Below are positions 166-11,965 of a DNA stretch of 12,307 bases, one piece after another (within the stretch, counting starts at the first letter, position 1; each line of letters starts with the position of its first letter). A program made the translations under genes and the position numbers. The stretch comes from Candidatus Methanophagales archaeon (lineage in GTDB: Archaea > Halobacteriota > Syntropharchaeia > Alkanophagales > Methanospirareceae), in assembly GCA_030612405.1 (NCBI GenBank), contig JAUWNY010000068.1:1-12307 (forward strand). Direction: 5' to 3'. Below the pieces are notes generated by a model. That model saw only the letters and a list, made by a program, of their open reading frames with translations, was not told the origin of the DNA and did no database searches.

Positions 166-243
166 CTTTCTTTCAAAAAGAAAGCTTTACCAAAGAAATT
201 TGTTTTTCTTTTAGCACAGGTTTTCTTTTTTTGAAAAAGAAAA
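166..243. repeat. Three consecutive AT-rich hairpins built from CTTTCTTT/AAAGAAAG-type arms
   Basis: Hairpin 166-184: ctttcttt-caa-aaagaaag. Hairpin 192-211: aaagaaa-tttgtt-tttcttt. Hairpin 221-243: ttttcttttt-ttg-aaaaagaaaa. Confidence 0.7.
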
Positions 244-892: not shown

Positions 893-903
893 TTTTTTTT
901 TTT
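893..903 (+). terminator. T11 run, archaeal oligo-T terminator candidate
   Basis: Eleven consecutive T immediately after the 826-887 hairpin. Confidence 0.5.
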
Positions 904-914
904 GGAGGGAAAAA

Positions 915-929
915 CCTAAAATGTTTAGG
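915..929. promoter_or_regulatory. Perfect 6-3-6 palindrome CCTAAA-atg-TTTAGG (operator candidate)
   Basis: The same half-sites with a different spacer (aca) occur at 8603..8617, at the equivalent position of U2. Confidence 0.6.
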
Positions 930-1023
930 GAAAAGGTGGAAAACCTCACAGTAATTTAGTGAATCACATGAAAGTTCATTTTTAAAAAGTTTTTCGGCTA
1001 AAACTTCATGTTCGTTCACACCT

Positions 1024-1050
1024 GTAAAAAAACCGCAAGTTTTATATACT
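1024..1050 (+). promoter_or_regulatory. Core promoter (A-rich BRE-like tract plus TATA tttatata at 1041-1048)
   Basis: gtaaaaaaaccgcaagttttatatact. 21/27 identical to 10008..10034 and similar to 8712..8738. Confidence 0.6.
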
Positions 1051-1087
1051 GTAAATATACAATCTACCAGCAGGAGGTAAAAAATAA

Positions 1088-1114
1088 ATGCCTTCAGGGG
1101 AAAAAAAGAGGTGA
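1088..1114 (+). CDS. 8-codon upstream mini-ORF (MPSGEKKR), speculative
   Basis: Preceded by agcaggaggtaaaaa, the same 15-mer that precedes the start of the 10083 gene. Its stop lies 5 nt before the 1120 ATG, and its 3' end supplies gaggtga as an SD for 1120. Confidence 0.2.
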   Translation: MPSGEKKR

Positions 1115-1119
1115 AATAA

Positions 1120-3882
1120 ATGGCGACAAGAACGAATTCTATAAGTAGTTGTAGTGATTTCAGAATGTCGCGGCGGACGTTCACTAAACTGGCGGCTTTA
1201 GGAACGGCGGCTGCTATCAGTGGAATCGGTGAAGTCGGCGCGTATCCTACGAAGTTTGTGGATAAACTGATCGAACCCGCGAGTGCGGCTCCGGAACCGA
1301 AAGTGGATCTTGTGAGGTCTATATGCGCGCATTGTTCAGTCGGCTGTGGATTCTACGGAAAGGTCGAGGATGGCGTGTTTACGGGCATGGAGCCCTGGGA
1401 GACTCATCCGATAAATGCCGGCGGGATGTGTTCCAAGGGCGCTTCCACGAGGGAAATGGTGGTCTCAGAGAGAAGGTTGAAATATCCGATGAAAAAGGTC
1501 GGCGGTAAGTGGGAGCGAATATCGTGGGATGCTGCGTTGGACGAGATTGCATCAAAGATGGCGGAAGTGAGAAGCAAATACGGACCAGATTCGGTGATGT
1601 TCCTGGGCTCGGCAAAGATGAACAACGAAGAGTGCTATATATACAGGAAGTTAGCTGCTTTCTGGGGCACGAACAATGTTGACCATCAGGCACGAATATG
1701 CCACTCCACTACGGTCCAAGGACTGGCGAACACGTGGGGCTTCGGCGCTCAAACGAACAACATTAATGATATGAGGCACTGCAAATGCCTGTTCTTCCTT
1801 GGCTCGAATGCTGCGGAAGCACATCCAGTGGCGATGCAGCACTTCCTCGAAGCTAAGGACAGGGGTGCTAAAATAATCGTTCTGGACCCGAGACGCACAA
1901 AAACCGCATCAAAGGCGGATATATTCAGTTGGTTCAGACCAGGAACAGATATACCAATAATGCTTGGGCTCATTAATGTCATTGTGAACAACGGCTGGCA
2001 CGATGAGGAGTTCATAAAGAACAGGACTATTGGATTCGATGATTTATGGGAAGTTGCAAAGGACTACACGCCTGAAGTGGTAGAGGACATCTCCTGGGTG
2101 CCTGCTGATACAATCAGGAACATAGCACGAACGCTGTACGAGAATAAGCCATCTGCAATATTCTGGGCAATGGGGCAGACACAGCATACTGTGGGGTCGA
2201 ACAACATCCACATGTCTGCGATTCTACAATTAGTCCTTGGGCATGCTGCACGGTCAGGAGGAGGTTGCCAGGCATTAAGGGGACATGACAACGTTCAGGG
2301 CTCTACCGACATGTGCTTACTCGCGCATTTACTACCAAGTTATTACGGACTTACTGAGAAAGGTTGGAAGCACTGGTGCGAGGTATGGGGCATTCCATAC
2401 GAGGAGATGGTCGGCAGGTTTGCATCGAAGGAGTTCATGGGAAAGAATGGGTTCACAGTTGCGAGATGGTATGAGGGAGTTATTATGCCCGAATCACAAA
2501 TAGACCAGCCACATAACATAAAAATATGCCTTGTGTGGGGTGAAGCGTTAAACTCAGTCACCGAAATGAAGCGGCAGAATGAAGCAATGGAGAAGCTTGA
2601 CCTCATGGTCATCGTTAACCCGCGTGCAAGTCCCGCTTCCGCATTGCCTGAGCGGTCAGATGGTATAATACTGCTTCCTGCATGCACATCATTCGAGAAA
2701 GCGGGAAGTGTAACAACCACCGGCAGACAAGTTCAGTGGAGACATAAGATTATAGACCCGCTTTGGGAGAGTAAGTCAGACTTCGTGATATATCAGGAAC
2801 TTGCAGCGAAGTTAGAGGAGAAGACGGGATTACCATTCAAGAAATACTTCACTTACTCACGTTCAGAGGATGTTTGGCCGGAGCTAAAGGCTGGGATGTT
2901 AGTCATCGGAATGCGACAAGACCCAGAGAGGCTGAAGACGCAACAGGAGTATGATACTACCTTTGATAGGGATACGCTGTGGTCAGAAGCTCTCAAGGAA
3001 TACTGGGGACTACCATGGCCTTGCTGGAACGATACGCACTGTGGAACGCCGCTATTGTATGATGCATCGAAACCTGTAAGCAGAGGAGGACATGACTTTA
3101 GAGTGAAATGGGGCAACACCGTTCCGGAGAACAAGTTTGGTAAACACGTTGGCGAGTCAATGCTGAGAGAGGACTATCCAGTTCCTCAGTATGGTTATGC
3201 ATACGACCCAGCGGAGATAGAGCGTGCACTTGCAGATGGCGAACCACCGACAGGGAGAGGGAAAGCAAGGATATGGATTTGGACATTTGCAGACCCGATT
3301 CCAATACACAGAGAGCCGATAGAGAGCCCAAGACCAGACCTAATTGATAAGTATCCGACGTACGACGATGTAGCATTCCAATACAGAGTACCCGCACCAT
3401 ATAAATCAAATCAGCAGGCGAGAAGGAACATTGTCGATAAGTATCCAATCGTTCTTACCACGGGCAGACAGGTAGAGCACATGGGAGGAGGTGCTCAAAC
3501 AAGAGGATGCGCTTATCTTGCGGAGCTTCAGCCAGAGATGTACGTGGAGATGAACCCAAAACTTGCTAGCGAAATCGGTGTTAATGTGCATAAAACAGGA
3601 ATAACGGATGACTATGTATGGGTAGAGACGCTCAGGGGGAGATGTAAGGTCAAAGCTTATGTGACGGAAGCAGTACCATACGACGAGACGCGGAAGACGG
3701 TATTTATGCCTTACCACTGGGCAGGCATATTTGAAGGCGTGTCTTATGAGGACAGATACCCGCCAGGATGCGGTGAAATCGTAGTCGGTGATTCAGTCAA
3801 TATCATTTGCGTTGACGGGTATGACATTCACACTCAGATGCAAGAGACGAAAGTGTGCCAATGTAATATATACAGGGCATAG
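1120..3882 (+). CDS. fdhA: Tat-exported molybdopterin (bis-MGD) oxidoreductase catalytic subunit, FdnG/FdoG-like formate dehydrogenase alpha, Cys-type
   Basis: Twin-arginine motif SRRTFTKL. N-terminal FeS motif CAHCSVGCGF...CSKG. DHQARICHSTTV and GSNAAEAHPV match E. coli FdnG DNQARVUHGPTV and GNAAEAHPV, with Cys replacing Sec. LRGHDNVQGS is also present. An alternative start at ATG 1165 (MSRRTF) is possible. Confidence 0.9.
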   Translation: MATRTNSISSCSDFRMSRRTFTKLAALGTAAAISGIGEVGAYPTKFVDKLIEPASAAPEPKVDLVRSICAHCSVGCGFYGKVEDGVFTGMEPWETHPINAGGMCSKGASTREMVVSERRLKYPMKKVGGKWERISWDAALDEIASKMAEVRSKYGPDSVMFLGSAKMNNEECYIYRKLAAFWGTNNVDHQARICHSTTVQGLANTWGFGAQTNNINDMRHCKCLFFLGSNAAEAHPVAMQHFLEAKDRGAKIIVLDPRRTKTASKADIFSWFRPGTDIPIMLGLINVIVNNGWHDEEFIKNRTIGFDDLWEVAKDYTPEVVEDISWVPADTIRNIARTLYENKPSAIFWAMGQTQHTVGSNNIHMSAILQLVLGHAARSGGGCQALRGHDNVQGSTDMCLLAHLLPSYYGLTEKGWKHWCEVWGIPYEEMVGRFASKEFMGKNGFTVARWYEGVIMPESQIDQPHNIKICLVWGEALNSVTEMKRQNEAMEKLDLMVIVNPRASPASALPERSDGIILLPACTSFEKAGSVTTTGRQVQWRHKIIDPLWESKSDFVIYQELAAKLEEKTGLPFKKYFTYSRSEDVWPELKAGMLVIGMRQDPERLKTQQEYDTTFDRDTLWSEALKEYWGLPWPCWNDTHCGTPLLYDASKPVSRGGHDFRVKWGNTVPENKFGKHVGESMLREDYPVPQYGYAYDPAEIERALADGEPPTGRGKARIWIWTFADPIPIHREPIESPRPDLIDKYPTYDDVAFQYRVPAPYKSNQQARRNIVDKYPIVLTTGRQVEHMGGGAQTRGCAYLAELQPEMYVEMNPKLASEIGVNVHKTGITDDYVWVETLRGRCKVKAYVTEAVPYDETRKTVFMPYHWAGIFEGVSYEDRYPPGCGEIVVGDSVNIICVDGYDIHTQMQETKVCQCNIYRA
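1165..1287 (+). other. Tat signal peptide region of the catalytic subunit
   Basis: MSRRTFTKLAALGTAAAISG... with the RR consensus, a hydrophobic core and a candidate A-S-A cleavage site. The cleavage position is a guess. Confidence 0.6.
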
Positions 3883-3894
3883 GAGGGATAAAAA

Positions 3895-4440
3895 ATGGTA
3901 ATATATAAATTCTTACATGATGTGGACCGATGTATAGACTGTGGAGGCTGCTTTGCTGCATGCAAAGACCATAACGGTGTTCCAGAGGGTGTAGCGAGGA
4001 TACGAGTGATAAGACTTAACGAGGGAAAGCCAGGGGAAAAATACGCAGCAATGGCTTGCATGCATTGCACTGACCCCGCATGCCTGAGAGCGTGTCCTAC
4101 GAAAGCGATAACCAAGCGACCAGATGGTATTGTGATAAACGACAAAGCCAAATGCATAGGATGTGGATACTGTAGTTGGGCGTGCCCGTTCGGGGCTCCG
4201 AAGTATCCGGATAAAGGACCTGTTGAACTCAGGGGAATAATGGACAAATGCACTTTCTGCGTTGTTCCATATGAACAAGAGAAGGATGTAGCGGGGAATT
4301 TAATACAGCACGAACCAAAACCAGTATGCGTTTCCTTCTGCGCAACCAAGGCACGGCTTGCAGGGGATGTCACGGAGATAACAAAAATATATACTGCGAG
4401 AATGGCTGGGAGATTGGTGCAAAGGCAAGTGGGGGTGTAA
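3895..4440 (+). CDS. fdhB: Four-cluster [4Fe-4S] ferredoxin-type electron-transfer subunit (DmsB/FdnH-core-like, no TM helix)
   Basis: Cys groups CIDCGGCFAAC, CMHCTDPACLRACP, CIGCGYCSWACP, CTFC...CVSFC. SD aggaggg lies upstream. 12-nt gap after the alpha gene. Confidence 0.9.
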   Translation: MVIYKFLHDVDRCIDCGGCFAACKDHNGVPEGVARIRVIRLNEGKPGEKYAAMACMHCTDPACLRACPTKAITKRPDGIVINDKAKCIGCGYCSWACPFGAPKYPDKGPVELRGIMDKCTFCVVPYEQEKDVAGNLIQHEPKPVCVSFCATKARLAGDVTEITKIYTARMAGRLVQRQVGV

Positions 4441-4447
4441 ATAGAGT

Positions 4448-5422
4448 ATGAGCCACACAGCATACGTTGTATTTACAGTATTCAGTCAGATGGCAGTGGG
4501 CGCACTGATAGCAATGGTCATCGCAGACTTTCTCGCGAAGGGAAAGGAGGATGCGAAGTTCTTTGAGACCGGGGCATGGGTATGTGTCCCGGTCGCGGTT
4601 ATTGGCTTGATAGCAATGCTCTCACACGAGGCACGTCCAATCCAAGCGATGATGACGATGAACGCAAACTTAGCTACGTCGTGGCTGAGCAGAGAGTCCT
4701 TAGCATTGACGGTGTTTGTAGTCTTAGCGGTGATATATACGGTGCTGTGGCTATTTGAGCCAGAATACGGCAGTCTCAAGGGGATACCCGTAATACCCAA
4801 GATAGCAAAGTTTTTTATGCCGCTCAGGAAGGTTGTTGGAATCTTAGGTGCGGTTATGGGATTTGCGTACCTCGGTATAGGTGCAAAGGCGTACATGATG
4901 CCCACTATGCCTTCGTGGAACTTAGACACAACGCCGCTGTTCTTCCTGGTTACTACTCTACTCGTGGGCGTAACGGCAGTAGCAGCAGTTCTTTCAGCGA
5001 AATACATGCTTAAAAAAGAAACCGTGGAACGTTTTGCGAACTTTCTTTGGGCTACATGGGGAATTGCGCTGGTAATGGTAATTGTGCTGCTCTTTACACT
5101 GTTTGCAAACATATCTGCGTTACAACAAGTTGGAGTGACAGAAGCCACAACACTAGCTCAAGCGGGAACACTGGAAAACATGCTGCATGGTGATTACACC
5201 GCGCTTTTCTATGCACGAGTGGTAATAGGCGTTATTCTGACACTCGTATGCTTGACAGCGCTTGTATTGCCGCTGAAGAAGAAGGACATCTCAAAAGCAT
5301 CGGCTCTTACACTCGCAGTGTTTCTGTGTGCGCTAATCGGCGAACTTCTGGGAAGGGCGGTGTTCTTCGGTGCGAACGTGTCACTTGGTGAAGTCATGCC
5401 CTACGTGTTATCTACGATATAA
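4448..5422 (+). CDS. Integral membrane anchor subunit, DmsC-like (about 8 TM helices)
   Basis: N-terminal VVFTVFSQMAVGAL resembles DmsC PLMIFTVFGQCVAG. C-terminal GELLGRAVFFG resembles the DmsC GR..FY motif. Eight hydrophobic segments counted by eye. Starts 7 nt after the FeS gene. Confidence 0.7.
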   Translation: MSHTAYVVFTVFSQMAVGALIAMVIADFLAKGKEDAKFFETGAWVCVPVAVIGLIAMLSHEARPIQAMMTMNANLATSWLSRESLALTVFVVLAVIYTVLWLFEPEYGSLKGIPVIPKIAKFFMPLRKVVGILGAVMGFAYLGIGAKAYMMPTMPSWNLDTTPLFFLVTTLLVGVTAVAAVLSAKYMLKKETVERFANFLWATWGIALVMVIVLLFTLFANISALQQVGVTEATTLAQAGTLENMLHGDYTALFYARVVIGVILTLVCLTALVLPLKKKDISKASALTLAVFLCALIGELLGRAVFFGANVSLGEVMPYVLSTI

Positions 5423-6065: not shown

Positions 6066-6815
6066 TCAAGCTTTCTTTTTTAAAGAGAGTCTTGCTATTA
6101 GTAATCCAAGCTCGAACATAGCTATTGACACCACCGCCATCAACATTGAAATACCCGTAGGGTCGGCGATGACAAAGAGAGCGATTCCTATTATCAGCCC
6201 ATAAAATATCAGTCGCTTACCCCTGAGCCATGAATACGTTACGAGCTTCATCCTTACCGCCAGAGCCATTATTAAAGGGATTTGAAAAATCAGCCCGAAT
6301 CCCACAGCGGTGTAAAGGATAATAGAGAAAACCCTTTTAGCTGAAAGCCTCACCAGTGCTATCTCGCCGGAGTAGGCGATAATGTAATCAAAAACGCGTG
6401 GAAGCACGATGTAATAGGCGAAGAAAGCGCCGAGTCCATACAAGCATAGCGAAGGAATAACAACAATCATGAAAAATCGCCTCTCCGACGGATATAAACC
6501 CGGTCGCATAAAAGCGAAAATCTCATATAGTAACAAGGGTAAAATAACAGAAAGAGCACATAAAAAGGAGAACATCAGCCTCACGCTTAGCCATTCCATC
6601 GGACCGTACACAAATAAAGACATATCACCGTGGAATAGATGGGTTAATAAGACGTGAAGGTAATCGTTTGAAAAAGGGAACATGATCAGGGTAACCGCTG
6701 CGAACGGGATTAAAACAACGACGAGTCTTCTTCGTAGTTCGGCGAGATGCGCGATTAATGGAAGCTCCTCATCGCTCACAGGTTCACTTATCTCATTTCC
6801 AGTTTGCAATTCCAT
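6066..6815 (-). CDS. tatC: TatC paralogue 1
   Basis: LIAHLAELRRRLV (TatC N-terminus) and FMRPGLYPSERRF (compare E. coli FIAPALYKHERRL). Six hydrophobic segments. I prefer ATG 6815 (MELQ...). The ORF-track start at 6851 is a TTG. Confidence 0.8.
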   Translation of the reverse strand: MELQTGNEISEPVSDEELPLIAHLAELRRRLVVVLIPFAAVTLIMFPFSNDYLHVLLTHLFHGDMSLFVYGPMEWLSVRLMFSFLCALSVILPLLLYEIFAFMRPGLYPSERRFFMIVVIPSLCLYGLGAFFAYYIVLPRVFDYIIAYSGEIALVRLSAKRVFSIILYTAVGFGLIFQIPLIMALAVRMKLVTYSWLRGKRLIFYGLIIGIALFVIADPTGISMLMAVVSIAMFELGLLIARLSLKKKA

Positions 6816-7595: not shown

Positions 7596-7645
7596 CAAGA
7601 AAACAGAAAATAAATTATAGACACAGATTAACGCAGATTAACACA
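7596..7645 (+). repeat. Intergenic repeat 'module A', copy 2
   Basis: 49/50 identical to 113..162. Starts 4 nt after the tatC2 stop. Confidence 0.9.
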
Positions 7646-7796: not shown

Positions 7797-8522
7797 TCAC
7801 AAAATCCGCCATCCGTTCGTGTACACATTAAACCGTTTATCGCGGGCGAACCCGACAAGGGTTATGCCAAATTCGGTTGCATCTCGTATTGCCTGTTCAG
7901 TAGGTGCAGAAACGCTTATGGCAACAGGGAAACCCGCAAAGAGCACCTTCTTCACGGTGGTGTGCGTTTGTCGGGAAGAAGTAACTAAAATGTTTTCAGA
8001 AATCGCTATCCCGTTTTTAATGCACGTCCCTATGAGCTTGTCTATCGCGCAATGCCTGCTAACATCTTCGATAAAGATGCCCTGTCCATTTTGATCGAAA
8101 GCCGCAACCACATGCGTGCCACCCGTCGCTTTATACAATACGCCCTCCTCTTCTAACTCTTTTACACGTTTAAACACGTCTTCGCACCTTATTTTTATCC
8201 TTGAGTTGACCTTCGAGGGCTTCCGATGGACTTCTCGCTCTAACGTAACACGTATTACATATTTCCCGGGTTTCGCCTCTTCGACATCGAGATTCGCGAT
8301 GTAAGAAGTGTCAAGCCCCTCGGAGTTCAAATGCCCGATTGCCAGCTCTTCAAAATGCGAAGGCAGGCAAAATAACTGGCTGTGTAGTTCTCCCCCTACG
8401 TCTATCCTTACTTCCGCTTCGCGAACGACAAAATCGTCTCTACGTCTTTGTAAGCATTTATCTCCAGAAACTTCGCGGATTTTCACGGGGGCAAGCGCTC
8501 CCCCCCTTTTCTTCGGGTCCAT
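7797..8522 (-). CDS. fdhD: FdhD-family formate dehydrogenase accessory sulfurtransferase
   Basis: ATGGTHVVAAF, SRHCAIDKLIG (compare GRHNAxDK), LVTSSRQTHTTVKK, VSAPTEQAIRDATEFGITLVGFAR. 241 aa. Confidence 0.85.
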   Translation of the reverse strand: MDPKKRGGALAPVKIREVSGDKCLQRRRDDFVVREAEVRIDVGGELHSQLFCLPSHFEELAIGHLNSEGLDTSYIANLDVEEAKPGKYVIRVTLEREVHRKPSKVNSRIKIRCEDVFKRVKELEEEGVLYKATGGTHVVAAFDQNGQGIFIEDVSRHCAIDKLIGTCIKNGIAISENILVTSSRQTHTTVKKVLFAGFPVAISVSAPTEQAIRDATEFGITLVGFARDKRFNVYTNGWRIL

Positions 8523-8578: not shown

Positions 8579-8738
8579 TTTGGTTAGAAGATGCAGACAA
8601 AACCTAAAACATTTAGGGAAAAAACCAAAAACCTATCAATAATTTAGAAAAAACAGTAAAAACTTCATTTTTAAAAAGAATCTTCGTTAATGTCTTATAT
8701 TCATTTGTGTCGCAAAAAATCGAAAGCTTTTTATACTG
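8579..8738. promoter_or_regulatory. Control module U2 in the fdhD / cytochrome divergent intergenic region (homologue of 901..1051)
   Basis: The collinear block 8599..8738 (140 nt) aligns with 911..1051 (141 nt) and shares all conserved sub-blocks. TATA tttttata at 8728-8735. Confidence 0.75.
8603..8617. promoter_or_regulatory. Perfect 6-3-6 palindrome CCTAAA-aca-TTTAGG (operator candidate)
   Basis: Half-sites identical to 915..929 with a different spacer. Confidence 0.6.
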
Positions 8739-8795: not shown

Positions 8796-9929
8796 ATGCC
8801 AAAAAGAGAATACGCAAGAAGCTGTAAATCGATGAGTGCAATAGTGAAGACTGCGAAGCCAATGTTGCCCCTGCTAGTTATTGCAGTGTTAGCGGTATCG
8901 CTGGTGAGTATAGCGATAGCGGCTGAGGAAGACTTCGGCGGTTGTGAAGGCTGTCACCCGGGAATTGCCGAGAATTTTTCGACATCGCTGCACTACACCC
9001 TCAGGGGAATGCCGGCAGAGTGGGAGAAAGGTGCAGCAGGGCATTTCGGAATTGATATGGATGCGTTTTATGCAAAGGGCAACTGCACTAACTGCCATGT
9101 CAGCACCTGCGAAAAGTGCCATGAAGGAGGGCATGGTGCGGAGATAACCATAGATACATGTGACCAATGCCATTTAAAGAAGCAGGCAGGGTTTGTAGGA
9201 GATACTCCAGCACATAAAGGTACAGGACCCAACGCCGACATCCACTATGAGATGGGGCTTATATGCATAGATTGCCATACAGCGGAAGAGATGCACGGTA
9301 CTGGTGTTGAGTATAGCACGATGCTTGAAGCAGTCACGACAGAGTGTGAGGACTGCCACAACAGTCCGGGGAAGGTTGTCAAGGACATGCCCGTGACGCA
9401 GTATTCACCTGATACGCCATCGCACAAGATACACGGAGAGAAACTTGACTGTACAGCATGCCACTCAGGATGGACGCCAACATGTACAAACTGCCATATA
9501 GATATCGAGAAGCCTCCCGGGACGGCTACAGTAGTGACAGACGAGTTCTATCTTGCTAAAGGTGTTGATGGCAAGATAAAACCGTTCCTTAAAATAGCGG
9601 CTATCTATAATAACGAAACGCATACAGGATGGGCTGAATGGTTCCCTCATACAACCACAAAAGTGGCAAAAGACTGTGCATTCTGTCACGAAAACCCGGA
9701 AGTGCTCTGTGAGGGTTGCGAGGATCAAACCCCCCTCACAATGCTCGGACCCGGAGGTTCATTCATACCACAAGAGACGATAGACAAGGTTTTAGCTGTA
9801 GAAATGCCTGCGGCACCAACGGAAACACCAGCAGAACCAGCAGCAACGCCTACACCACCAGGTTTCGAACTGATATTCGCAGTGATTGCTATTGCAGTGG
9901 TTGTGCTTCTTGCAAAACGGAGACATTAG
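8796..9929 (+). CDS. Nonaheme c-type cytochrome, secreted, with Thr/Pro linker and PGF-CTERM anchor
   Basis: Nine CxxCH motifs: CEGCH, CTNCH, CEKCH, CDQCH, CIDCH, CEDCH, CTACH, CTNCH, CAFCH. N-terminal hydrophobic signal MLPLLVIAVLAVSLVSIAIAA. C-terminus PAEPAATPTPPGFELIFAVIAIAVVVLLAKRRH. Confidence 0.95.
   Translation: MPKREYARSCKSMSAIVKTAKPMLPLLVIAVLAVSLVSIAIAAEEDFGGCEGCHPGIAENFSTSLHYTLRGMPAEWEKGAAGHFGIDMDAFYAKGNCTNCHVSTCEKCHEGGHGAEITIDTCDQCHLKKQAGFVGDTPAHKGTGPNADIHYEMGLICIDCHTAEEMHGTGVEYSTMLEAVTTECEDCHNSPGKVVKDMPVTQYSPDTPSHKIHGEKLDCTACHSGWTPTCTNCHIDIEKPPGTATVVTDEFYLAKGVDGKIKPFLKIAAIYNNETHTGWAEWFPHTTTKVAKDCAFCHENPEVLCEGCEDQTPLTMLGPGGSFIPQETIDKVLAVEMPAAPTETPAEPAATPTPPGFELIFAVIAIAVVVLLAKRRH
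9858..9926 (+). other. PGF-CTERM archaeosortase-A sorting signal
   Basis: PGF, then a hydrophobic helix, then KRRH at the extreme C-terminus, preceded by a T/P-rich linker. Confidence 0.85.
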
Positions 9930-9944
9930 GTAAAAAAGAGTGTG

Positions 9945-9986
9945 AGGGTCTAAGCAATCGGCTGGACCCTTTTTTTTATTTTTTTA
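9945..9986 (+). terminator. Hairpin (agggtc/gaccct) plus T8-A-T7 terminator
   Basis: agggtctaagcaatcggctggaccctttttttttattttttt. Duplicated at 11759..11799. Confidence 0.7.
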
Positions 9987-10007: not shown

Positions 10008-10034
10008 GTAAAAAATCGGAAACCATTATATACT
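10008..10034 (+). promoter_or_regulatory. Core promoter U3 of the 426-aa gene (TATA ttatatac at 10026-10033)
   Basis: gtaaaaaatcggaaaccattatatact is 21/27 identical to 1024..1050. The downstream 15-mer agcaggaggtaaaaa (10067-10081) is identical to 1069-1083. Confidence 0.6.
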
Positions 10035-10082
10035 CTAAAATTTAAGGAAGATATTACATGTCTAATAGCAGGAGGTAAAAAT

Positions 10083-11363
10083 ATGGGTAAAAATAGAATA
10101 GTGATAACTGTTGTAGCAACAGTTATTGTTGCTGCTCTGGTTCTATCGGCTGTATCTGTTGCACAGATGCACGGTAAGGGCGGAATGCAGAGAATGGGGC
10201 CACAGCAGGCAATGGGCGTAGGGCAGGGGTTACGTCATGGAGCTGGCATGCACGGTGGTCCAGGATTTATGTATCAGAGCGGGTGTGCGTATGGCGAATA
10301 CGTAACATTTTCTGTGGATGAAACAAGCGGAATCGTTTATGACTATGGCATAGCCGGGGATCCTATGCTGACCTCCATCGAGGTCGTTGATTTTGAATAT
10401 GGCGACACAATAGTGAGTGGTGCAGTCACACGGATTATAAATGAGAATGGCTCAATAGCGATTATGTTGCACGATACGCCGTCAGCGCCGTTGAATTTTT
10501 TAGCCACAACGGATTTCACCGTTAAATTCGAGGTGGCAGACGGCGTAACGATATCAGAGGACGATACTGGTGTGAAACTCGAATCAGGCGAGGTGTCTGC
10601 ATATATCCTTGCAACTGCGCCAGCAGGCGTCACAGCACCAGCAGTAACGATATCCGGGCAAATAGTCACGATTGATGCACCTGCTAGCAGTGTAGTGCTG
10701 CTTCGAGCAGTACCTGTGATTTTTGGGTATGACGGTGCCACCATGACAATGAACAGAAACTTCGTCAGGCGGATGGTAAACGACCAAATCGGGGCTGATG
10801 TCACCATCGGTGCACAACAAAGTGCATATTGCATTTTTGATTACGCCAACCTGACTCCGATGCAGTTATCATACAACAACCGAACATGCTTTAGAATACT
10901 AAATAGAACTCCGACACAACTTAAAATCGCACTGAACTCGGATTCACCATTGGGCAGGCTGATTGGCATCAATCTCGACAATGCTTTCGGACTGCAGGAC
11001 CGTGAGACGTTGCAGATTCGATACGATGGTAGGGTTTTGCCGTGTTTATCTAATCCCGAACAGGTAATACAAGCACGTGAAACTACCTGCTGGTTAAATC
11101 GATACAACAACACAAGGGCACAGTTGATGCTATATGTAAGCAACTTTTCCGAGCATATTCTCGAAATCGAAGTTTATGAGGAGAGAGAAGAGGTGGAGCC
11201 TACTGCCGCTCCGAATGTGACTCAAACACCGACATCCACGCCATTCGAACCAACTGTGACAGAGTCACCCACACAGGACACACCAGGATTTGGTGCACTT
11301 GCAGTCGTTATGGGGGTTATCGTTGCATTAATCATGAAACGGCGTTACGGGCGTTCCAAATAA
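10083..11363 (+). CDS. Secreted PGF-CTERM surface protein of unknown function with a Met/His/Gly-rich N-terminal segment, probably a glycoprotein
   Basis: Signal/TM IVITVVATVIVAALVLSAVSVA. Then MHGKGGMQRMGPQQAMGVGQGLRHGAGMHGGPGFM. Seven N-x-S/T sequons. C-terminal T/P-rich linker plus PGFGALAVVMGVIVALIMKRRYGRSK. I recognise no family for the central domain. Confidence 0.8.
   Translation: MGKNRIVITVVATVIVAALVLSAVSVAQMHGKGGMQRMGPQQAMGVGQGLRHGAGMHGGPGFMYQSGCAYGEYVTFSVDETSGIVYDYGIAGDPMLTSIEVVDFEYGDTIVSGAVTRIINENGSIAIMLHDTPSAPLNFLATTDFTVKFEVADGVTISEDDTGVKLESGEVSAYILATAPAGVTAPAVTISGQIVTIDAPASSVVLLRAVPVIFGYDGATMTMNRNFVRRMVNDQIGADVTIGAQQSAYCIFDYANLTPMQLSYNNRTCFRILNRTPTQLKIALNSDSPLGRLIGINLDNAFGLQDRETLQIRYDGRVLPCLSNPEQVIQARETTCWLNRYNNTRAQLMLYVSNFSEHILEIEVYEEREEVEPTAAPNVTQTPTSTPFEPTVTESPTQDTPGFGALAVVMGVIVALIMKRRYGRSK
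11283..11360 (+). other. PGF-CTERM sorting signal
   Basis: TPGFGALAVVMGVIVALIMKRRYGRSK. Confidence 0.8.
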
Positions 11364-11461: not shown

Positions 11462-11743
11462 ACACACAGTAACAGACACAAGCCAAAGGATTGTGTATTC
11501 TGCCACGACAGCAAGGAAGTGCTTTGCGAGGGTTGCGAAGGTGATATTCTCGGACAAGGAGGTTCACTTATAGCTCAAGAGACGATAGACAAGATATACG
11601 GGATAGCTATGCCAACTGAAACACCAACACCAACGGTCACATCGGCTACGCCAGCAGCAACGCCTACACCACCAGGTTTCGAACTGATATTCGCAGTGAT
11701 TGCAATTGCAGTGGTTGTGCTTCTTGCAAAACGGAGACATTAG
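11462..11743 (+). pseudogene. 5'-truncated remnant of a paralogous multiheme cytochrome gene (last CxxCH, linker and PGF-CTERM)
   Basis: In-frame translation ...KDCVFCHDSKEVLCEGCEGDILGQGGSLIAQETIDK...PGFELIFAVIAIAVVVLLAKRRH parallels residues KDCAFCHENPEVLCEGCEDQ... of the 8796 gene. The frame is closed by TAG at 11444-11446 and has no ATG upstream of the homology. The ORF-track start at 11519 is a GTG inside the homology. Confidence 0.75.
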
Positions 11744-11758
11744 TTAAAAAAGAGGGTG

Positions 11759-11799
11759 AGGGTCTAAGCAATCGGCTGGACCCTTTTTTTATTTTTTTA
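11759..11799 (+). terminator. Second copy of the hairpin plus oligo-T terminator
   Basis: agggtctaagcaatcggctggaccctttttttattttttt. Confidence 0.7.
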
Positions 11800-11846
11800 T
11801 TGTATATAAAGTATAGCTTCCTTCTATTCAAGACACAGATTTATAC
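11794..11846 (+). repeat. Intergenic repeat 'module B', copy 2 (TATA tatataaa at 11803-11810)
   Basis: 48/53 identical to the reverse complement of 260..312. Confidence 0.85.
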
Positions 11847-11855
11847 AAATTAAGC

Positions 11856-11933: not shown

Positions 11934-11965
11934 TTATCATCTGTGTTAATCTGTGAATAATTTTT
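11934..11965 (-). repeat. Intergenic repeat 'module A', copy 3 (inverted, one decamer unit fewer)
   Basis: The reverse complement of 11934..11953 (cagattaacacagatgataa) is 20/20 identical to 7634..7653. The upstream aaaaattatt resembles aaataaattat of copies 1 and 2. Confidence 0.75.

Follow-up and report, generated by a model that had tools for sequence, protein, structure and literature searches.

We describe here a duplicated promoter region in a 12,307-nucleotide stretch of DNA from a Candidatus Methanophagales archaeon, referred to throughout as the window. Two modules, one upstream of the formate dehydrogenase operon fdhABC (copy 1), the other between the divergently transcribed fdhD and a nine-haem cytochrome c gene (copy 2), are homologous promoter-region DNA, true copies of one control region. 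With moderate confidence, we read them as paralogous copies of a duplicated bidirectional promoter cassette that carries a candidate operator. Such a cassette would have three parts. A rightward core, made of an A-run, a TFB-recognition element (BRE) and a TATA box, would drive fdhABC in copy 1 and the cytochrome in copy 2; a T5A5 tract next to a CGAA, some 60 bp upstream of this core, would provide a leftward BRE/TATA on the minus strand; and further out, a 15-bp palindrome (site A) together with a degenerate site 30 bp away (site B) would serve as operators for a dimeric DNA-binding regulator. At copy 2 the leftward promoter would face fdhD and be held under constraint, and at copy 1 it would face no gene and be decaying, with the proximal part of the module kept.

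Homology and distribution of the two modules

Both copies begin with AAAACCTAAA and end with TATACTG, and they are collinear, with 96 of 141 positions identical and three 1-nt indels in a MAFFT alignment that included the orthologues. Their local alignment scores 70, against 18.5±2.7 (maximum 30) in 500 shuffles, and BLAST matches one to the other with E-values of 4e-9 to 1e-10. The mismatches are clustered, leaving 24 match runs, which is fewer than expected (permutation, P = 0.004). Solid similarity is limited to positions 911-990 (76% over 80 nt); across 991-1025 the copies are only ~49% identical, and the remainder of the module is BRE/TATA. A first-pass annotation of this DNA had proposed collinear, duplicated modules of ~140 bp with an ordered set of shared blocks, and the duplication, the lengths and the collinearity all stand. 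The 'ttcgtt' block does not, as its hexamers occupy non-corresponding positions: in the alignment, TTCGTT of copy 1 (1011-1016) pairs with TTCATT of copy 2 (8700-8705), and TTCGTT of copy 2 (8683-8688) pairs with TTCGGC of copy 1 (993-998). The same hexamer recurs 13-60 nt upstream of TATA elsewhere in this gene island (loci of other genomes are given as L numbers), namely at NifU (L001), at fdhA of L053 (2175-2205) and at a molybdenum (Mo) enzyme gene of L119 (5895-5990).

Each module keeps its place among relatives, and two contexts account for all copies found. An exact scan for the palindrome with its flanks, covering one genome per species in 185,579 species genomes, returned 19 matches, four of them in ANME-1 (anaerobic methanotrophic archaea, group 1), and all four are the copy-1 orthologue upstream of fdhA. 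In JGI metagenomes, a slightly looser scan added two copy-1 orthologues and also found four copy-2 orthologues; the other matches were unrelated, having only the palindrome in common with the module. Two of these unrelated sequences (metagenome contigs L034 and L044, JAAUYB01) hold tandem arrays of many ACCTAAAAnTTTTTAGGT-type palindromes that were caught by the search pattern. Loci fetched through their proteins, and thus independently of the motif, have both copies where they lie in the window, in GoMg1 (L025/L063) as well as in GCA_034660015 (L050). Copy-1 orthologues are present in L004, L007, L010, L025/L063, L029 and L050, and copy-2 orthologues in L025, L027, L031, L048 and L050. The apparent loss of asnC, the Lrp/AsnC-family gene upstream of copy 1, from GoMg1 was set aside as a contig break in that metagenome-assembled genome (MAG), the related scaffold L063 having asnC directly upstream.

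A third context was found neither in the genome, metagenome and viral scans nor by BLAST of both modules against 118 fetched loci, and no credible further site came from searching ~130 kb of ANME-1 loci for the palindrome with two mismatches, the genome-scale scans being of the exact pattern only. The modules are thus not copies of a high-copy genomic repeat, an outcome that had been named as refuting the regulatory interpretation. Equally, a wider regulon, for which a genome search for module or palindrome had been suggested as a check, did not appear: ANME-1 matches lie only at the fdhABC and fdhD/cytochrome loci.

How deep does this arrangement go? Syntenic clusters exist in more distant relatives, in L053/L054 (~68-73% nucleotide identity), L119 (FdhA 85% identical) and L121 (FdhA 77% identical), and the palindrome and the distal part are absent from all of them. 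From its A-run to the end of the 5' untranslated region (5'UTR), TATA box included, the fdhA promoter of L121 lines up collinearly with copy 1, scoring 59 against 17.8±2.2; in L119 the core promoter is similar, and likewise collinear with that of the window, and the segment around the start codon is in common. A different promoter type, with a long leader, precedes the cytochrome genes of L053 and L022. Because orthologues with 85% and 77% identical FdhA are without it, the distal 80-110 nt of the module are a recent feature of one shallow clade, and the proximal part of copy 1 represents the ancestral fdhA promoter. The direction of the duplication itself is something we infer rather than observe.

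Promoter-like elements on both strands and unequal constraint

The blocks had been taken as upstream elements of rightward promoters. This is not supported for part of them: ttcatttttaaaaag together with ttcg read on the minus strand as a good BRE/TATA, of the same form as the histone and fdhA promoters, and in copy 2 this element appears to be aimed at fdhD. A relaxed BRE/TATA pattern, run over both strands of 157 kb of ANME-1 loci, gave 10 matches against 1.3±1.2 in composition-keeping block shuffles. Of the ten, nine have a correctly oriented gene downstream, the copy-2 leftward element before fdhD among them; the tenth is the copy-1 leftward element, which faces only the asnC terminator. 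Within the window, five elements have the BRE/TATA form, with a TTTAWATA-like, AT-rich box and a purine-rich BRE (CGAAA-like) immediately before it, three on the plus strand and two on the minus (Table 1), and all except the copy-1 leftward element stand in matching orientation upstream of a gene: fdhA, the cytochrome, a 426-aa surface protein and fdhD.

Conservation among orthologues differs between the two copies in the same sense. Nowhere in the fdhD/cytochrome intergenic region is there a longer nearly invariant run than the TTCATTTTTAAAAAGAATCTTCGTTAAT stretch of copy 2 (29 nt, six orthologues). The copy-1 leftward element is lost or altered in L050, L063, L007 and L010, and the stretch that corresponds to it is variable in most orthologues. 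Among the copy-2 orthologues, 11 of the 102 columns that are the same in both paralogues vary, against 15 of the 40 that differ between them (P = 5e-4); for copy 1 the same test gives 24/102 and 11/40, no difference (P = 0.67). The distal part of copy 1 evolves faster than third codon positions of the neighbouring gene (28/63 versus 32/147 variable, the latter 22%; P = 0.001), its proximal part tends to be slower than that 22% (6/55), and the segments of copy 2 do not differ significantly in rate from third codon positions. The suggestion that diverged sequence between the blocks marks functional cis-elements finds support in copy 2 and in the clustering of mismatches, and none in the block test on copy 1. 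Because the block test fails for the fdhA copy and its distal part is fast, the blocks would not be equally functional at both genes; such an asymmetry would follow from a divergent promoter pair being present in both copies, with a left-hand gene only at copy 2.

Of the two candidate operators, site A is a perfect 6-3-6 palindrome with a 5-3-5 core, CTAAA/TTTAG, and an AT-rich centre; CCTAAA-N3-TTTAGG occurs in the window at 915 and 8603 only, even at two mismatches. Site B has two mismatches and a 5-bp spacer, and in both copies lies exactly 30 bp from A, that is three helical turns. Site A of copy 1 is intact in 7/7 orthologues, five of which were found by this very pattern; site A of copy 2 has one arm base changed in L050 (TTTAGA), and site B of copy 1 is variable among its orthologues. 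Counted from the predicted leftward start, site B is at ~+5 and site A at ~+36; counted from the predicted rightward start, A is at ~-149 and B at ~-119. The recognisable site nearest to the rightward core, B, is ~70 bp upstream of the A-run and BRE, and there is no recognisable dimer site a few bp upstream of that BRE. We also considered a periodic array of five Lrp-like sites and rejected it, as only A and B resemble each other.

The 426-aa gene shares less with the two modules than had been proposed. The match of its core promoter to copy 1 is exact as described (21/27), and yet not specific: scored against the 27-nt core of copy 1, the NifU promoter and a second Mo-enzyme promoter in L119 also reach 21/27, the L053 cytochrome promoter, of a different type, 20/27, the L121 fdhA promoter 22/27, and the histone promoter 17/27 ungapped and more with a gap, so that unrelated promoters cover 17-22/27. 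The element at this gene is a generic ANME-1 BRE/TATA, of the form A-run / (C/T)CG-N-AA / TTTATATA, and the distal blocks, when sought there, were absent. The identical 15-mer is likewise exact, and is better described as a piece of an ancestral fdhA 5'UTR on one side and a Shine-Dalgarno site on the other than as a regulatory link. A single regulon of three units including this protein is thus not supported.

The likeness of the two leaders nonetheless exceeds chance (score 33 versus 17.6±2.9 in shuffles, maximum 32), and the 426-aa gene may have borrowed a piece of the fdhA leader, with no regulatory block in common. In every fdhA orthologue down to L053, which belongs to the most distant of the syntenic clusters, and with L119 and L121 included, the TATA box is followed after 24-26 nt by GGAGG(T)AAA, where the fdhA mRNA is predicted to begin (window 1069-1119; L119 8960-9000; L121 640-676; L053 2290-2326). 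The real Shine-Dalgarno site of fdhA is a separate GAGGTGA before the start codon. A conserved leader peptide following the 15-mer was rejected, since the ATG at 1089 is ATA in L007, L010 and L029, and absent in L119, L121 and L053.

Table 1. Coordinates in the window of the two modules, their elements and the genes around them.
Feature	Position	Strand	Remarks
Lrp/AsnC-family regulator gene (asnC), 146 aa	314-754	+	Pfam; candidate palindrome binder by position only
Module copy 1, upstream of fdhA	911-1051, 141 nt	+	directly after the putative asnC terminator (hairpin 826-888 and T-run)
Palindrome A1, CCTAAA-ATG-TTTAGG, candidate operator	915-929, centre 922
Site B1, CTCAC-AGTAA-TTTAG, degenerate palindrome	945-959		30 bp from A1
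Copy-1 leftward BRE/TATA-like element, GCCGAAAAA-C-TTTTTAAAAA	979-998	-	pattern match; orphan, no minus-strand gene downstream
fdhABC rightward core promoter: A-run, BRE CCGCAAG, TATA TTTTATATA	1026-1049	+	predicted start ~1069-1073
Start of fdhA 5'UTR, including 15-mer AGCAGGAGGTAAAAA (1069-1083)	1054-1083	+	matches 10050-10081 at 27/31
fdhABC	1120-5422	+	Pfam
fdhD, formate dehydrogenase maturation factor	7797-8522	-	Pfam
Module copy 2, fdhD (-) / nine-haem cytochrome (+) intergenic region	8599-8738, 140 nt	+
Palindrome A2, CCTAAA-ACA-TTTAGG, candidate operator	8603-8617, centre 8610
Site B2, CTATC-AATAA-TTTAG	8633-8647		30 bp from A2
Copy-2 leftward BRE/TATA-like element, AACGAAGA-TTC-TTTTTAAAAA	8668-8688	-	fdhD start codon 145 nt downstream
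Cytochrome rightward core promoter: A-run, BRE TCGAAAG, TATA TTTTTATA	8714-8735	+	predicted start ~8757
Cytochrome c, nine CxxCH motifs and PGF-CTERM anchor	8796-9929	+	Pfam, motif count
Core promoter of 426-aa gene, generic BRE/TATA	10008-10034	+	no distal module
Same 15-mer at 426-aa gene	10067-10081	+	GGAGGT 7 nt before ATG at 10083, ordinary Shine-Dalgarno site
426-aa surface protein, signal peptide and PGF-like C-terminus (PGF-CTERM)	10083-11363	+

What the duplication may mean

Several observations weigh against a two-way promoter with operators. Since L053/L054, L119 and L121 are without the distal module, only close relatives can be used for footprinting, and those that carry it are all close (~88-95% nucleotide identity, 86-91% at third codon positions of asnC and fdhD), so that the power is low; overall, neither copy is significantly slower than third codon positions. 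The conservation of the palindrome is inflated, as 8 of the 13 orthologous copies were retrieved through the palindrome pattern itself. Half-sites beyond A and B were sought in the modules and none is recognisable, only A and B being alike. A weaker TATA-like element stands 17-26 nt before the fdhD ATG, in a geometry that fits a leaderless transcript, and with it the distal leftward promoter may be unnecessary. Lastly, the locus is a recombination mosaic, and the high identity of the promoters is in part recent shared ancestry rather than selection. Compared with L050, the window is 94% identical in asnC, 87% in the distal part of copy 1 and 95% across core, leader and signal peptide; fdhA is 95% identical to ~1250, ~70% from there to at least 2400, and 83.5% from ~3290, which places a recombination breakpoint inside fdhA near 1250. 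The cytochrome protein is only 60-81% identical between the window and L050 or L025, though the flanking DNA is ~94% identical. The fdhA mosaic and the divergent cytochrome fit allele exchange within ANME-1.

The most probable of the alternatives is a neutral relic: a segmental duplication copied a promoter region, nothing in it works apart from the generic BRE/TATA cores, and whatever likeness is left elsewhere is ancestry that has yet to decay, overlaid by ordinary rate variation. The window does hold several other recent intergenic and segmental duplications, the distal part is confined to a shallow clade, the module as a whole changes at a rate not significantly below third codon positions, faster in distal copy 1, and the mosaic structure is as described. 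We nevertheless think this unlikely, given the block-specific conservation of copy 2 with its nearly invariant 29-nt stretch, a minus-strand BRE/TATA match that would very improbably arise by chance, and a palindrome that is perfect in both paralogues although ~30% of positions differ between them.

Perhaps, on the other hand, the blocks form an activator array that serves the rightward promoters only, with one activator governing one regulon of fdhABC, the cytochrome (with fdhD) and the 426-aa protein. The ordered blocks and clustered mismatches would suit such an array, as would block centres that follow one another at ~30 bp down to the TATA box (922, 952, 983.5, 1013.5 and 1045.5 in copy 1; 8610, 8640, 8672.5, 8702.5 and 8731.5 in copy 2), a spacing that fits wrapping by an Lrp-type oligomer (PMC2995911), and the Lrp/AsnC gene directly upstream of copy 1. 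We find it more doubtful still than a neutral relic: the distal blocks are missing at the 426-aa gene, where the core match is generic, and unconstrained at fdhA; the fourth 'block' is weakly similar, its ttcgtt misaligned; the asnC gene is equally conserved in L119 and L065, whose loci hold no palindrome; the motif was found nowhere else in the scans; and known archaeal Lrp activators work from next to the BRE (PMC2995911), a position at which no site is recognisable here.

It is improbable that the distal part acts by shape, its phased A-tracts curving the DNA and so affecting bending, histones or access of TBP and TFB. A-tracts do recur every 10-11 bp in the distal halves, with a periodicity peak at 10.5-11 nt (P = 0.009 in copy 1 and 0.084 in copy 2, against mononucleotide shuffles), but the statistics are weak, the null model is permissive, and a perfect 15-bp palindrome in both copies would go unexplained. 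Least credible of all, and very improbable, is that the modules are a mobile or interspersed repeat resembling a miniature inverted-repeat transposable element (MITE), a small RNA gene or a small open reading frame (ORF), for although the genome has other MITE-like intergenic repeats and a gene caller placed a 77-aa minus-strand ORF at 786-1019, the modules were found in two contexts only in the genome, metagenome and viral scans and their ends lack terminal inverted repeats and target duplications, there is no Rfam match, folding z-scores are -0.3, -0.9, +0.1 and +1.9, compensatory change affects 0 of 41 predicted pairs of the leftward leader, 1-nt indels between blocks break any reading frame, and the 77-aa ORF is called only on window-type contigs and extends into a segment (757-895) missing in L004, L007, L010, L025 and L050.

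If the two modules are indeed a duplicated bidirectional promoter, which protein would bind its palindrome? The adjacent Lrp/AsnC protein comes to mind by position, and we regard the assignment as doubtful. AsnC is conserved across ANME-1 at 67-98% identity, lineages without the palindrome included, and its orthologues in L119 and L065 are 85-86% identical with no palindrome within those loci; AsnC as the regulator by co-occurrence was rejected on these grounds. Coupling of fdhABC with fdhD and the cytochrome is plausible, the evidence for it being indirect. A stronger version is one that we hold to be unlikely: an uncharacterised regulator, possibly the adjacent Lrp/AsnC protein, would jointly switch the secreted formate dehydrogenase, FdhD and the extracellular nine-haem cytochrome, through a circuit recently copied and pasted as a portable two-way cassette within a horizontally mobile island. 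Were this true, ANME-1 would possess a control circuit dedicated to extracellular electron transfer linked to formate. Short of that, a control region that couples a periplasm-facing formate dehydrogenase, a multihaem cytochrome and FdhD would lend sequence-level support to the old suggestion of a partnership between this sporadically distributed enzyme and a c-type cytochrome in ANME-1 electron export, and the 15-bp palindrome would then be a defined DNA probe for capturing the regulator of an uncultured lineage. The locus also offers a clean archaeal example of promoter-region duplication followed by asymmetric decay. The rest is ordinary: generic BRE/TATA cores, one of several duplications in the window, and a distal element found in a shallow clade only.

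Genomic setting and comparison with known systems

The host is an ANME-1 (Methanophagales) archaeon; close relatives of the window are MAGs of that name, and the PGF-CTERM signal marks archaea, hence an archaeal host. The window is contained in an ENA metagenome contig of 39.5 kb (ERZ25749332 NODE_189). By Pfam, fdhA (1120-3882, plus strand) encodes a molybdopterin enzyme with a twin-arginine translocation (Tat) signal, the alpha subunit of formate dehydrogenase, and its best PDB match is 9vap_A, 'Formate dehydrogenase FdhA' (E = 3.5e-246). A 4Fe-4S subunit and a DmsC/NrfD-type membrane anchor follow. The genes between fdhABC and fdhD, again by Pfam, include minus-strand TatA and TatC and a second TatC, which is on the plus strand. 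A search of the window for tRNA genes found none. In relatives, the surroundings of the fdh and cytochrome genes (L055 1-9700; L050 9974-13184; L053 10152-12392) hold the cytochrome c maturation genes CcmABCE, a NarJ/TorD-type chaperone, NifU, siroheme-decarboxylase-like AhbA/B and radical-SAM genes; with the fdh/cytochrome cluster they make up a larger island devoted to the production and export of haem and Mo enzymes.

Other repeats mark the window. The 3' end of the cytochrome gene (9667-9984) is duplicated at 11484-11798 with 76-92% identity, including the PGF-CTERM anchor and terminator, and a 74-aa ORF at 11519-11743 is only the C-terminal tail of the cytochrome left by this event. A 50-nt intergenic repeat, 98% identical at 113-162 and 7596-7645, contains CACAGATTAAC sub-repeats and has a partial inverted copy at 11934-11955; in L119 a CACAGATTAAC-type motif flanks an inserted GC-rich hairpin, and the repeat could be a MITE-like element or else mark a hotspot of insertion. 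The region upstream of asnC (255-315, including TTTATATAC) has an 87% identical inverted copy at 11791-11851 (downstream of the 74-aa ORF), and the 21-mer that holds its TATA is seen again at 799-819. As that TATA stands only 10 nt before the annotated ATG of asnC, it cannot serve as promoter for this ATG. Direct repeats of GTGTAAATC at ~250-285 are conserved in L119.

On the left flank of copy 1, eleven consecutive T follow a hairpin at 826-888 (GCCACAGAG...CTCTGTGGC), an arrangement that looks like a terminator for asnC. Segment 757-895 is peculiar to the window genome, with no counterpart in L004, L007, L010, L025 or L050, and a G-run just left of the module varies from G3 to G11 among orthologues. 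A 10-3-10 palindrome, TTTTCTTTTT-TTG-AAAAAGAAAA, lies upstream of asnC in the window (221-243), and in the GoMg1-type scaffold (L063, ~6530-6560) it is found directly left of copy 1, downstream of asnC; since their relative order differs, asnC and this segment have changed places.

At the level of the core, all three rightward promoters, together with the histone, NifU and other ANME-1 cytochrome promoters, fit the generic archaeal BRE/TATA, and no difference from it was found. As for the candidate operators, we know of no Lrp-family half-site that matches CTAAA/TTTAG. Archaeal Lrp-type sites are (semi)palindromes of 13-15 bp around an AT-rich centre, arranged in clusters of imperfect sites with centres two or three helical turns apart; for Ss-LrpB, two targets have their core site over 100 bp upstream of the start (PMC2995911). 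The regions bound by Ss-LrpB of Sulfolobus solfataricus, Ptr2 of Methanocaldococcus jannaschii and FL11 of Pyrococcus (PMC2995911) resemble the modules in palindrome size and AT-rich centre, the 30-bp distance from A to B would fit their spacing, and an Lrp/AsnC gene adjoins copy 1. The modules differ in having only two recognisable candidate sites and in an adjacent asnC gene that is conserved also where the palindrome is absent. Neither site abuts the BRE, whereas Lrp-family activation works from a dimer site a few bp upstream of it, as at the promoters activated by Ptr2 and LysM (PMC2995911).

Repressor systems offer a second comparison, for the leftward promoter. Archaeal repressors often act from positions such as +5 and +36, and at nif and glnA of Methanococcus maripaludis the NrpR operators GGAA-N6-TTCC lie downstream of the TATA box. 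The LrpA operator at its own promoter in Pyrococcus furiosus, another repressor system, is placed in the same way (PMC2995911). B and A would be placed like these operators, at ~+5 and ~+36 of the predicted leftward promoter, and a repressor bound to them would block recruitment of RNA polymerase; the motif is a different one, and the leftward start is here a predicted one.

Finally, a membrane-bound, Tat-exported formate dehydrogenase cluster with the same gene set has been described in ANME-1 (Chadwick et al. 2022, PMC9012536), and earlier fosmid work cited there proposed that the formate dehydrogenase is anchored via a c-type cytochrome. The words 'promoter' and 'FdhD' do not occur in the main text of that paper. 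The window shares with the published cluster an FdhA with a signal peptide, the FeS subunit, the DmsC-like anchor and a neighbouring cytochrome, and the same sporadic distribution, in keeping with the recombination mosaic found here; what the present analysis would add is a promoter-level link of the fdh operon with the fdhD/cytochrome pair, new but minor.

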